Numbered from the stretch's first letter, positions 41,645 to 55,533 are shown. The stretch is 64,000 nt of DNA from Acidobacteria bacterium SCN 69-37 (GCA_001724025.1 MEDJ01000009.1:306762-370761), one strand, 5' to 3'. Translations and numbers: made by a program. Notes: generated by a model not told the origin, from the sequence alone.

Positions 41645-42334
41645 TCATCGCATCGTCCTCGATGACACGCGCCTGACCACGCCGGGCGCCACCCGGGCGA
41701 TCACCAGCTGTACGTCTGCCCGGGCGCGCCGCGGTCCGATCACGCGGACGCGCAGCACCACCACGCCGTTACTGTCGACGCGCGCGTCCCCATCTCCATC
41801 CGCCACGTCGTCTGACACCCACACGATCGCGTAGACGTCGTCCGGGAGGCCAGCGAACGGCAGCACGGATCCGGGAACCCCCTGCCCGAACAGGCGCCAG
41901 CGCGGGGTATCGACGCCCCAGGGATTGCCACTGTAAGCAGCCTGTTGCAGGGCCAGTGTCGCGGCCGGGGCATCGAACGGCCCGCCGCCGAGCGCCGGCG
42001 GCAGAACCAGCGAGCCGGCCAGGCGCGCCGACGTGCCCCCGCCAGGCACCGGCGTCCAGTCGGCCACACCCGCCAGTTCGTCGACGACGACATCGGCCAC
42101 GCCCTCGGCCGCGTGATGCAGGCGCAGGCCATCACGGTGGTACGCGGCCATCAGGTGTTCGACGTCGACAACCAGACTGACGGTGAGGCCTATGGCACCA
42201 AGAATGACCGTCAGGAGCAGCACCGCAACGAGGACGGCTCCGCACTCGCTCCCAGCCCTCTCCCCTGTCCCGCTCGCGGACGGAGACAGCCGGGCCGCGT
42301 CAGTATGCGGCGCCGAGCGCCCTGGGCGTCGCAT
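41645..42334 (-). CDS. PilX/GspK-like minor pilin-associated protein
   Basis: N-terminal hydrophobic helix GAVLVAVLLLTVILGAIGL. Last gene of the minor-pilin trio. The start is uncertain because the longest ORF overlaps the upstream gene by 35 nt. Confidence 0.45.
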   Translation of the reverse strand: MRRPGRSAPHTDAARLSPSASGTGERAGSECGAVLVAVLLLTVILGAIGLTVSLVVDVEHLMAAYHRDGLRLHHAAEGVADVVVDELAGVADWTPVPGGGTSARLAGSLVLPPALGGGPFDAPAATLALQQAAYSGNPWGVDTPRWRLFGQGVPGSVLPFAGLPDDVYAIVWVSDDVADGDGDARVDSNGVVVLRVRVIGPRRARADVQLVIARVAPGVVRRVSSRTMR

Positions 42335-43397
42335 CGATGATCACCTCCATGTCCGGCACGAGACGCCGCGCATCGACCGCGCGCCCCGGGCGGAAAAACG
42401 CCGGCCCGCGCCCGCGCGCGTCGTCGGCCGAGGCCGCGAGCCGTACCGTCACGCGTACGGATCGGATCCGCAGTAAATCGGCATCGAACGTGTTGCCGCC
42501 CGATCCGCACCACGGACCGTCGGCCAGCGTCTCGATCGGCATCCTGACGTTCGCCGTGCCCGGCGGCGGCTCGGCAGCCAGGACGGGCACGCCGTCGGCG
42601 TCGAACCAGCACGTGGCCGCCCCTGCGTCGCCGCGCGCGGTCGCCGGCGCTCCTGGCGCCCCCCAGTACTCGAAGGCCACGGCCTCCACGTCGTCGACGA
42701 TCGGCATGTCCGATCGATACCCGTCGTACACGCGCAACTGCCGACGCGCCGCGTCGAAGTAGTACGTACGTGTCTCGACGCCCACGGCGAATGCGCCGGC
42801 GGCGAACGACGACACCGACGCAGCCTGACGCGCAGTCACGGGCGCCGCGTCGCTGCCCGGCGGCCCGACCATCACGAAGTCGTGACGTCCCGACCACTCG
42901 AAAATGACAACGTGCGCCCCTTCCCGCAGGCCGCAGACGGGCCTGGCCGGCGGGCACCCATCGGCCTGCGCGAGTCGCAGATCGCCGGGCAGGGGCGACA
43001 GCAACCGCCCCGGCACCACACCCGGCGCCACGGCGACAGTGGTCAGGACGTCCTGGCGCGCCACCGTCGGGGCATCGGCGCCCGTGGTGCCGAGGCGCCG
43101 CGGGAGCACCACGGGGACGCAGCAGGCGAGACTGGCGCCCGGCGGACCTCCAGCGTCGGCCCAGGCACCCGCCTCGGCGATCGCGCGCCCGAGGATGTCC
43201 GCCACGGCGCGCGCGCGCTGCTGGAGATCGCCTGCGTCCGTCTGCGCGCGGGCCAGCGGCACCTGCGTGGAGACGAACAGCAGGACGCCTCCCATCACTG
43301 CCATCGCCAGGACTGACGCGACCAGCAGTTCGACGAGCGAGAATCCCGCATCGTCGACCGACACACGCCCCGTTCGACATGCCACCTGCCGCCTCAT
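42300..43397 (-). CDS. PilW-like minor (pseudo)pilin
   Basis: Prepilin-type N-terminus G|FSLVELLVASVLAMAV. The ATG overlaps the upstream stop (ATGA). Confidence 0.6.
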   Translation of the reverse strand: MRRQVACRTGRVSVDDAGFSLVELLVASVLAMAVMGGVLLFVSTQVPLARAQTDAGDLQQRARAVADILGRAIAEAGAWADAGGPPGASLACCVPVVLPRRLGTTGADAPTVARQDVLTTVAVAPGVVPGRLLSPLPGDLRLAQADGCPPARPVCGLREGAHVVIFEWSGRHDFVMVGPPGSDAAPVTARQAASVSSFAAGAFAVGVETRTYYFDAARRQLRVYDGYRSDMPIVDDVEAVAFEYWGAPGAPATARGDAGAATCWFDADGVPVLAAEPPPGTANVRMPIETLADGPWCGSGGNTFDADLLRIRSVRVTVRLAASADDARGRGPAFFRPGRAVDARRLVPDMEVIIDATPRALGAAY

Positions 43398-43930
43398 CCC
43401 GTCGTCCTCGCCTTCATCGTCGCCAGGTCGACGACGAGGAGTTCGTGATGCGTGTCGATGACGCGCACGCGCAGCACGACGAGATTCGGAAATGCGGGCG
43501 GCCGATCGACGGCCCATCGCCGGATGAACCGCGCGGCGGCCGGCGGCGACGGCCCGGACGCCAGCCATCGTCCCGTGTGATCGAGATAGTCGACGAATCC
43601 GGGCGTGTTGCCATCGAGTACGCCCGCCGGCGATGGCGACAAGCCGCTGCCGCCCGGACCTGGATCCGGACCGCTCAGATCCGTCACCAGATCCACGCTG
43701 TCCACCGGCGCAGCGGCCGATCCGAGGCCCCAGGGCAACGCCCGCAATTGCTCTAGTCGATCGTGCGCGAGCAGCACGGCGACCGTTGCGAGCCTCGCGC
43801 GGATGATCCCGCGCGCCGCCAGCGTCGTGAGCGCCCCCACCCCGCTGGCCAGCAGCACCAGCACGACGACGGCGACGAGGACTTCGACCAGGGTGAATCC
43901 CTGAGGATCACAATCACGACACGAGACCAT
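43394..43930 (-). CDS. PilV-like minor (pseudo)pilin
   Basis: Prepilin-type N-terminus QG|FTLVEVLVAVVVL. Start at ATG 43930, with GTG 43960 as an alternative. Confidence 0.6.
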   Translation of the reverse strand: MVSCRDCDPQGFTLVEVLVAVVVLVLLASGVGALTTLAARGIIRARLATVAVLLAHDRLEQLRALPWGLGSAAAPVDSVDLVTDLSGPDPGPGGSGLSPSPAGVLDGNTPGFVDYLDHTGRWLASGPSPPAAARFIRRWAVDRPPAFPNLVVLRVRVIDTHHELLVVDLATMKARTTG

Positions 43931-54495: not shown

Positions 54496-54537
54496 GACAC
54501 GTGAATCGTCACGGCCGATGGACACCTGAGCGGGCCG

Positions 54538-55533
54538 TCAGAAGCCCGCGCGCAGTGCCACCCCGAACTCGCGACTCTCGTCGGCCTGGCCCCGGCCGTA
54601 GTGCCCGTCGATCCACAGCCCCTGCCGCACGCTGACACTGGCGCCCACGGCCCCGGTCACGCGGCGATCCAGGGCCAGGTTCCACCGCACCCCGGACCGG
54701 ACCTGGATCCGGGAACCGAGAGCCCATTCGCCCCCGGCCGCCAGCATCCGACGAAGGTCGCCCATCAGGTCGACCGTATTCAGGTCCAGGTCCATAGCAA
54801 GGGTCAGGCCATCGGCCGGCAGCACCGCCAATCCCATCCGGGTCTGCCGCGGCAGCCTGATGGCGACCCCGTTGGCCCCGTCGCCGAACTCGGGTGCCCG
54901 CAGGTTCTTGACCGCCAGGCCGAGCCGCACGTGCGGGGCCGAAGCCATCACCCCGAGATCGAGATCGACGGTGAACCGCGACCGGCCGTCGAGGTCGGCC
55001 AGCCGGTCGAGTGCCTGCCCCGCTGTCGGCGCATCGACATCCCCACCGGCCGCCGAGCCGCGCATGAACTTGACCGTCGAGCCGACGACCAGCCCCTCCA
55101 TCACGGTCTGGAGCACCGTCACGCCCACATGGCTGACGCGAAGCGACTCGCCGGACAGGACATCGCCTGCCCCCGGGCCAGGCGAGACGCGATGGCGCTG
55201 CGTGGTGCCGTACGCGATCCCGATCGGCCAGGTCCCCAGGCTCGTGAACGTCGACCGGCCACGTCGCACGTCATCCGTGGGCCATGCGTCCTGATTACCA
55301 ACCTGAAACTGATGCCACCCAATTGTCACGCCCGCCAGCTGCCCCGCCGACAGGCCCGCCGGATTCCAGTGCACGGCCGTCGCGTCGTCGGCCACGGCCA
55401 CGAATGCCCCGGCCATGCCGAGCGCGCGCTCCCCTGCTGCCTCGAAGACGAGCTGTGCCGAGGCGGGTATGGCTAACCCCACCATCAGGACCAGCAGGCC
55501 CCCGACCGTCCCGATGCGACCCCTTCGCGTCAT
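54538..55533 (-). CDS. Secreted putative outer-membrane beta-barrel protein (PorV/TraF/UPF0164-like N-terminal motif)
   Basis: Signal peptide MTRRGRIGTVGGLLVLMVGLAIPASA. LGMAGAFVAVADDATAVHWNPAGL motif. Alternating hydrophobic pattern and a C-terminal aromatic residue (ends ...ALRAGF). Confidence 0.55.
   Translation of the reverse strand: MTRRGRIGTVGGLLVLMVGLAIPASAQLVFEAAGERALGMAGAFVAVADDATAVHWNPAGLSAGQLAGVTIGWHQFQVGNQDAWPTDDVRRGRSTFTSLGTWPIGIAYGTTQRHRVSPGPGAGDVLSGESLRVSHVGVTVLQTVMEGLVVGSTVKFMRGSAAGGDVDAPTAGQALDRLADLDGRSRFTVDLDLGVMASAPHVRLGLAVKNLRAPEFGDGANGVAIRLPRQTRMGLAVLPADGLTLAMDLDLNTVDLMGDLRRMLAAGGEWALGSRIQVRSGVRWNLALDRRVTGAVGASVSVRQGLWIDGHYGRGQADESREFGVALRAGF

Follow-up and report, generated by a model that had tools for sequence, protein, structure and literature searches.

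An intact type IVa pilus locus of an uncultured Vicinamibacterales acidobacterium, with pilMNOPQ and pilSR absent from its neighbourhood

A stretch of 64,000 nucleotides from Acidobacteria bacterium SCN 69-37 (the window, analysed over its whole length and corresponding to positions ~64,275-128,274 of a 167-kb bioreactor-metagenome scaffold) carries a cluster of type IV pilus genes between positions 41645 and 55533. The window has a G+C content of ~69%, and reading frames were picked by codon-position GC bias and then checked against Pfam and NCBIfam, with the 580-residue start of PilB taken from the public gene call. According to this annotation every real gene of the interval lies on the minus strand, giving 14 co-oriented genes. 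The first-pass annotation, made from the sequence alone, had listed the same 14 genes on this strand, and their order and boundaries are confirmed by the family matches and coordinates; the same applies to the convergent aroB gene that it had placed only 6 nt away, which occupies 40493-41638 on the plus strand, 6 nt separating its end from the stop codon at the close of the cluster. From the upstream end, the features of the locus are as follows.

54538-55533, minus strand: FadL/PorV-like outer-membrane barrel, 331 aa (TraF_2, E 6e-8)
52753-54495, minus strand: pilB, extension ATPase, 580 aa (T2SSE and MshEN; TIGR02538)
51532-52665, minus strand: pilT, retraction ATPase, 377 aa (TIGR01420)
50339-51535, minus strand: pilC, inner-membrane platform, 398 aa (two T2SSF domains)
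49985-49999, minus strand: sigma-54 -24/-12 element TGGCACccaagTTGC (sequence read directly)
49308-49853, minus strand: pilA1, major pilin, 181 aa (N_methyl, G-F-T-L-x-E)
49242-49279, minus strand: intrinsic terminator after pilA1 (stem and T-run)
48538-49095, minus strand: pilA2, second pilin paralogue, 185 aa (N_methyl, G-F-T-L-x-E)
47571-48284, minus strand: DsbA/BdbD-like oxidoreductase, membrane-anchored, 237 aa (Thioredoxin_4, CPSC site)
46580-47530, minus strand: ABC ATPase, DrrA/GldA type, 316 aa (ABC_tran)
45765-46583, minus strand: ABC-2 permease, 272 aa (ABC2_membrane_2)
44869-45768, minus strand: membrane-anchored TPR protein, ~299 aa, GTG start (TPR_16, TPR_19)
44105-44869, minus strand: pilD, prepilin peptidase/N-methyltransferase, 254 aa (A24_N_bact and Peptidase_A24)
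43394-43930, minus strand: minor pilin, PilV/GspI type, 178 aa (N_methyl)
42300-43397, minus strand: large minor pilin in the PilW/GspJ position, 365 aa (N_methyl)
41645-42334, minus strand: third minor-pilin-like protein, putatively of PilX/GspK type, 229-aa open reading frame (no family match)

All open reading frames (ORFs) of the cluster are intact and show a third-position GC bias of the coding type. By spacing they fall into the units barrel-pilB-pilT-pilC, pilA1, pilA2, dsbA-ABC-permease-TPR-pilD and the three minor pilins. The gaps in the first unit are 42, 87 and -4 nt, pilC overlapping pilT by 4 nt, and those in the pilD unit are 40, -4, about -4 and -1 nt, where the permease gene overlaps the ABC ATPase gene by 4 nt and the GTG start of the TPR gene overlaps the permease stop; the minor pilin genes are separated by -4 and -35 nt. 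The same arrangement is present in independent assemblies of the organism (L087 and L088), which excludes an assembly artefact. We conclude that the cluster is a real, intact 14-kb locus of a retractile type IVa pilus (T4aP), belonging to an uncultured soil-type acidobacterium of the Vicinamibacterales. For comparison, a PilB-based scan of species-representative genomes supplied 80 loci with up to 10 kb on each side, nearly all titled Acidobacteriota apart from a few odd bin labels, the closest being Vicinamibacterales metagenome-assembled genomes with PilB identities of 72-91%.

The cluster combines PilC and PilD with a pilin carrying a class III signal peptide (G-1, F+1, E+5), and it encodes the PilB and PilT ATPases of type IVa machinery as well. 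PilB is recognised by the equivalog model TIGR02538 at 743 bits (cut-off 676), and its N-terminus (54300-54495) bears an MshEN motif for binding cyclic di-GMP (c-di-GMP; NF053729, 51 bits, cut-off 38). GGDEF genes are found at the start of the window and just to the left of it. PilT scores 495 bits on TIGR01420, beyond the cut-off of 319, and PilD matches A24_N_bact (E 3e-35) and Peptidase_A24 (E 5e-18). The best NCBIfam model for PilC is the Myxococcus-type PilC, at 448 bits and thus under its cut-off of 700.

The sigma-54 box TGGCAC-N5-TTGC, the promoter that the first pass had ascribed to the pilin, lies 146 nt 5' of the pilA1 ATG (49999-49985, minus strand); it is exact, and it was the sole exact match when both strands of the window were scanned. 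The product of the gene, PilA1, has the leader MKGKGEQG/FTLIELL (cleavage at the slash) and exceeds the cut-off of TIGR02532, while its best equivalog model, the Myxococcus-type PilA, is matched by the N-terminal part only. The gene is followed by a terminator with a 12-bp stem, of which 10 pairs are G-C, and a T-run, the hairpin with its T-run being placed at 49279-49252. The second pilin gene, pilA2, sits behind this terminator, and no -24/-12 match was found in its upstream region. PilA1 and PilA2 share 101 identical positions in a pairwise alignment, and each contains exactly two cysteines, which in PilA1 are Cys62 and Cys119. Elsewhere a second pilin occurs only in the closest relative of full length, L007 (at ~15275), and in a handful of distant ones. 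Two or three tandem pilins are seen in L039, L061, L071, L078, L079 and L080 (~19-22 kb in the locus), which are titled Acidobacteriota or Ca. Sulfotelmatobacter only and fall outside the window's group; there a second, divergent pilC-like gene comes after the pilins, accompanied in four of the six by a pilB-like gene, with 28-39% identity to the window proteins.

In Myxococcus xanthus the order, as Wall and Kaiser reportedly gave it in 1999, is pilB-pilT-pilC-pilS-pilR-pilA-pilG-pilH-pilI-pilD-...-pilMNOPQ. The likeness of the core order that the first pass had pointed to is borne out, since pilB-pilT-pilC ... pilA-[accessory gene, ABC ATPase, permease]-pilD agree in both order and co-orientation; further points of likeness are the sigma-54-dependent pilA, the Myxococcus-type best models of PilC and PilA, and the pilS-pilR pair that distant Vicinamibacterales retain between pilC and pilA. 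Unlike the Myxococcus locus, the window has no pilMNOPQ after pilD, where three minor pilins and then the convergent aroB are found, and pilSR is absent from this site in the window's sub-clade. Three genes are extra: the barrel before pilB, the DsbA-like gene after pilA and the TPR gene between permease and pilD. The minor pilins also differ in placement: here they form part of the cluster and have no PilY1 beside them, while in M. xanthus they are encoded apart, in fimU-pilWVY1X clusters (PMC6060248).

When essentially all remaining coding ORFs of the window were annotated with Pfam, no secretin, PilM, PilN, PilO, PilP, PilY1, PilS or sigma-54 activator came up, and tblastn queries with HofMNOPQ of E. 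coli and the PilS and PilR of a relative gave no match in the window, in agreement with the earlier statement that pilMNOPQ, pilSR and pilY1 are missing from it. No PilY1-type adhesin stands beside the minor pilins, the last of which adjoins aroB, and no PilY1-like domain was found in the window. The first-pass annotation had allowed that a canonical pilMNOPQ and pilSR set might lie immediately outside. None was found there: the 10 kb to the left (L001) contain no pilMNOPQ, pilSR or pilY1 but GGDEF, PIN, esterase, aminotransferase and two-component genes, and the 6.4 kb to the right (L087), likewise free of pilMNOPQ, pilSR and pilY1, hold a ribosomal-protein/secY operon. A PilS/PilR pair is thus absent from the window and from both of these flanks.

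Mapping the cluster proteins on the loci of the relatives showed that the order is conserved across the Vicinamibacterales. With pilB on the plus strand it reads barrel, pilB, pilT, pilC, a gap, pilA, dsbA, ABC ATPase, permease, TPR, pilD and three minor pilins, with SLT, MacB2, MacB1, HlyD and Yip1 divergent from barrel-pilB. A convergent aroB closes the cluster in L008 and L091, and in L091 it is followed by nadB, OmpA, tatAC, an S41 peptidase and smc, as in the window. The minor pilins and the convergent aroB are therefore the conserved end of the cluster, and the proposal that they replace pilMNOPQ does not hold. In a tblastn screen that covered the window and 85 loci, and that is insensitive for PilN, PilO and PilP, E. 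coli HofMNOPQ gave no hit; none of the 80 acidobacterial pilB loci, whatever their class, had a HofMNOPQ-like gene within 10 kb of pilB. We found no literature on pilus genes in Vicinamibacteria.

A dispersed organisation of T4aP genes is exemplified by Pseudomonas aeruginosa and Neisseria. The window resembles it in having no linkage of pilMNOPQ to pilBCD and pilA, and in such systems the regulators and PilY1 may also sit elsewhere; it differs in collecting 14 genes at one place, in having pilT between pilB and pilC, and in the minor pilins adjoining pilD. T4aP genes are usually spread over several loci (PMC6668835), and a separately co-transcribed pilMNOPQ is typical of most T4aP bacteria, the single 17-gene cluster of M. 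xanthus being the exception (PMC6060248). Given this norm, missing conduit genes are to be expected and the gap is not the anomaly that the first pass had implied. The arrangement is ordinary, and the missing genes reflect a 64-kb horizon rather than biology. With considerable confidence, we regard the cluster as the main locus of a conventional retractile T4aP, supplying the cytoplasmic and inner-membrane motor, the pilins, their maturation and a minimal set for priming the tip, with pilMNOPQ for the alignment complex and secretin, the activator pair for sigma-54 and any adhesin of the PilY1 type placed elsewhere; pilMNOPQ and a relocated pilSR in particular are very likely carried by the genome.

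The one derived feature of the cluster is its missing pilSR, which is a loss or relocation that took place in the window's sub-clade. Here the observation of an absent pair was correct for this site, where relatives outside the sub-clade have the pair. The distance between pilC and pilA is 3.3-5.4 kb in 26 loci of the Vicinamibacterales group and, for other acidobacterial classes, in each of the 10 loci that are informative, and in the relatives L017-L054 this interval contains pilS-pilR; in L018 (14198-17301), for example, it encodes a PilS with 6TM_PilS, PAS, HisKA and HATPase_c domains and a PilR with REC, Sigma54_activat and HTH_8. In some relatives a further gene lies between pilR and pilA and explains their gaps of 4.7-5.4 kb; the one in L028 (17349-18668) encodes 439 aa and matches Peptidase_S9 weakly. 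The gap shrinks to <0.5 kb, with no remnant in it, in the window and the five relatives closest to it (L007, L008, L009, L014 and L016); the window's pilC-pilA1 spacer (49854-50338) is 485 nt long, and no trace of PilS or PilR was found there. An independent loss of pilSR is seen in two loci far removed from the window, L037 and L038, the former retaining a 179-aa PilS 6TM fragment (14277-14816).

The sigma-54 box upstream of the first pilA persists in loci with and without pilSR alike, and it is kept in L037 and in the whole of the window's sub-clade. In most relatives 90-173 nt separate it from the G-F-T motif that this pilA encodes; it is exact in the window, L008, L009 and L014, and has one mismatch in L007 and L016. 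The ancestral site has thus lost pilSR on at least two occasions, the promoter being retained. Since distant relatives carry pilSR between pilC and pilA, the pilin appears to be under PilR-type regulation in this lineage, and the retention of the box without a local pilSR implies an activator elsewhere in the sub-clade genomes. Queried against a large protein database, a relative's PilR has thousands of orthologues; they abound in the order, and the 120 matches listed are all 74-99% identical and come without genome context, so that none could be tied to the window's organism. The loss of pilSR with the promoter kept offers a natural case for the study of regulator relocation.

One could also speculate that the loss of pilSR marks the beginning of inactivation, and that the sub-clade is no longer piliated or lacks any secretin. 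The empty ancestral site, the PilS 6TM remnant of L037, which demonstrates that such deletions happen, and the lack of a secretin in the window and flanks are all compatible with a decaying or orphaned system. Against decay, 14 of 14 genes are intact, translationally coupled and normal in codon bias; the core proteins share 72-91% identity within the sub-clade, a sign of purifying selection; and every member retains the sigma-54 box. We consider decay improbable.

The minor pilins raise the separate question of which kind of filament is encoded. The first (43394-43930) has sub-threshold NCBIfam matches to PilV, XpsI and GspI. The second (42300-43397) is unusually large and contains 7 cysteines; it passes N_methyl narrowly (22.1 bits, cut-off 21.2), and Pfam, NCBIfam and the PDB gave no further family and no structural match, so that the PilW/GspJ label rests on motif, size and position. 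The third (41645-42334) matches nothing in Pfam or NCBIfam. It has the cleavage-site Gly and a hydrophobic helix but no Glu at +5, and its 15 homologues, which share the N-terminal motif G-AALV-hydrophobic without Glu+5, cover 74-88% of the ORF save for one near-identical sequence, the true start probably lying downstream of 42334. An AlphaFold2 (AF2) model of this protein (predicted local distance difference test score, pLDDT, 79) has a 64-residue helix and a beta-sheet in a pilin-like architecture, with GspK (3ci0_K) as its best, non-significant Foldseek match (E 0.07). The three resemble GspI-GspJ-GspK and XcpV-W-X of the type II secretion system (T2SS; PDB 3ci0 and 5vtm) in having a small I, a large J and a K without Glu+5 encoded by consecutive overlapping genes. 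They differ in showing no significant sequence or fold match to GspIJK and in standing in a T4aP cluster with PilT, and the third, with an ORF of 229 aa, falls short of the GspK and XcpX chains of known structure (280 and 259-261 residues). A minimal I/J/K-type priming trio, working without PilY1, is plausible.

Such a trio without PilY1 resembles T2SS tip complexes, and PilC scores on GspF models too, as PilB does on GspE models, which could point to a non-motility filament, either a T2SS-like pseudopilus or a competence pilus, instead of a T4aP. PilB, however, passes its own equivalog threshold and fails that of GspE (578 bits against 630), a dedicated PilT retraction ATPase is present, the pilins measure 181-185 aa with a Myxococcus-type PilA N-terminus, and GspC, GspL, GspM and GspD were not found in the window annotation. 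We find this as hard to credit as decay, and retain the assignment to a retractile T4aP.

Between the pilins and pilD lie the accessory genes. By sequence, the DsbA-like protein of the window matches BdbD and DsbA-like entries of the PDB, and with two cysteines in each pilin it would naturally be taken to form the pilin disulfide. Its orthologue in L091 (507-1712) is a VKOR-Thioredoxin_4 fusion of 401 aa, DsbB/DsbA-like, where the window version has a transmembrane anchor only, and this fusion supports the proposed role. The ABC ATPase matches the NCBIfam models drrA and GldA_ABC_ATP, both under their equivalog cut-offs. With the permease it takes the position of Myxococcus PilH and PilI, the likeness being one of class and position only; M. 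xanthus PilGHI is described as required for pilin translocation (PMC3724824). The TPR protein has an N-terminal transmembrane helix and no cysteine, and its PDB matches are to generic TPR repeats only. It was considered as a lipoprotein pilotin of the PilF/PilW/Tgl type and rejected on these features, as it has no lipobox Cys.

The gene directly 5' of pilB was considered as a possible outer-membrane exit. Its true ATG is at 55533, the end coordinate given by the first pass, and the product has a signal peptide ending in AIPASA/QL and a C-terminal Phe. NCBIfam gives a weak PorV/PorQ match of 30 bits, under the cut-off. The family is ~325 aa long, and its 1,459 homologues at E <= 1e-5 are labelled hypothetical or 'TraF' only; a conserved N-terminal G-x-R-A-L-G-M-x-G-A-F region is what the PorV and TraF_2 models recognise. 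An AF2 model built from 47 sequences (pLDDT 78.5) finds its best PDB folds in FadL, TodX, TbuX and the type IX secretion system (T9SS) protein PorV (8gl6_F), with template-modelling scores of about 0.55-0.6. With FadL, TodX and PorV it shares a monomeric 14-stranded model, while falling under the PorV family cut-off; and whereas PorV belongs to the T9SS, there are no T9SS genes near the barrel, whose apparent operon is with pilB. The two genes, 42 nt apart with no terminator between them, are probably co-transcribed. Of the 46 loci of the Vicinamibacterales group, 42 have the barrel directly 5' of pilB, as against none of 25 acidobacterial loci from outside the group. As a secretin the candidate was rejected, having TraF_2 as its only Pfam match and a monomeric barrel of ~14 strands as its model, and as the missing pilus conduit it is ruled out on fold grounds.

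The lumen of FadL-class barrels measures 2-3 nm or less and is plugged in FadL itself, too narrow for a pilus. A non-secretin outer-membrane route, or a lineage-specific outer-membrane accessory factor involving this barrel, might draw on the conserved linkage to pilB and on the role of its structural relative PorV as a secretion-system shuttle protein, but a lumen of this width could not pass a fibre 6-7 nm wide (PMC3724824) and conserved adjacency alone is no proof of function, so that we rate it slightly below even the two preceding alternatives. Equally remote is the more far-reaching proposal that the Vicinamibacterales T4aP dispenses with the canonical PilQ route and uses the barrel as a new outer-membrane component, with the sub-clade's pilA rewired to a sigma-54 activator other than PilSR. 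We know of no diderm T4aP that functions without a secretin. The retention of a FadL/PorV-like barrel directly upstream of pilB across the order is a point for specialists.

For a conventional T4aP distributed over several loci, the following sequence of events can be proposed. Sigma-54 holoenzyme would bind TGGCAC-N5-TTGC, and an NtrC-type activator supplied from elsewhere would open the promoter, giving a monocistronic pilA1 transcript that should end at the strong terminator. PilD would cleave and methylate the prepilins, and the DsbA-like oxidoreductase would make the single Cys62-Cys119 disulfide. To judge from position and class, the ABC ATPase, the ABC-2 permease and the TPR protein may handle the pilin at the inner membrane as PilGHI do in Myxococcus. 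The I/J/K-type minor pilins might then prime assembly on PilC, from where PilB would extend the fibre, probably tuned by c-di-GMP through MshEN, and PilT would retract it, the fibre presumably leaving the cell through a PilQ secretin encoded elsewhere.

Several points weigh against this account. The sequence read amounts to ~80 kb of the 167-kb scaffold, and pilQ, pilMNOP, pilSR and pilY1 were not found in it; the HofMNOPQ search of the relatives' loci is weak for three of the alignment proteins (PilN, PilO and PilP). The ABC/TPR module is likened to PilGHI by class and position, and the K-type label of the third minor pilin comes from a model and a non-significant fold match. For pilus biology at large the locus changes little; what it adds is a complete-looking set of T4aP motor, pilin and maturation genes, with a core order like that of Myxococcus and Geobacter, in an abundant uncultured order of soil and bioreactor Acidobacteriota.

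The remainder of the window is occupied by genes of a housekeeping kind: dapA, zwf, dut, htrA, a lysS-like gene, miaB, rimP-nusA-infB-rbfA-truB-pnp, smc, tatABC, nadB and aroB, together with a Yip1-HlyD-MacB-MacB operon, an SLT transglycosylase and rplQ-rpoA-rpsK. The Yip1-HlyD-MacB-MacB operon (55862-60453), divergent from and adjoining barrel-pilB, is kept throughout the Vicinamibacterales; it encodes two MacB_PCD/FtsX permeases and has no ABC ATPase gene of its own.

A palindromic hairpin resembling repetitive extragenic palindromes, CCCTGGGGCTTCAGCCCCAGGG, occurs at six sites of the window (7472-7493, 27586-27607, 28924-28945, 48419-48440, 50288-50309 and 55686-55707), where none would be expected by chance. 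Three of these are in intergenic regions of the pil cluster, two of them downstream of pilA2 and of pilC respectively and one 5' of the barrel gene, and a second, degenerate copy follows pilC at ~50205-50225. Beside the hairpins there are heptamer-like tandem runs (~55730-55830, 48480-48535, 49205-49245 and 50230-50285) of the types CTACCGG/CGACCAC, CAGAAGC and GGCTACG(A/G)GGC, which yield spurious long ORF extensions such as a 434-aa reading of the barrel ORF.

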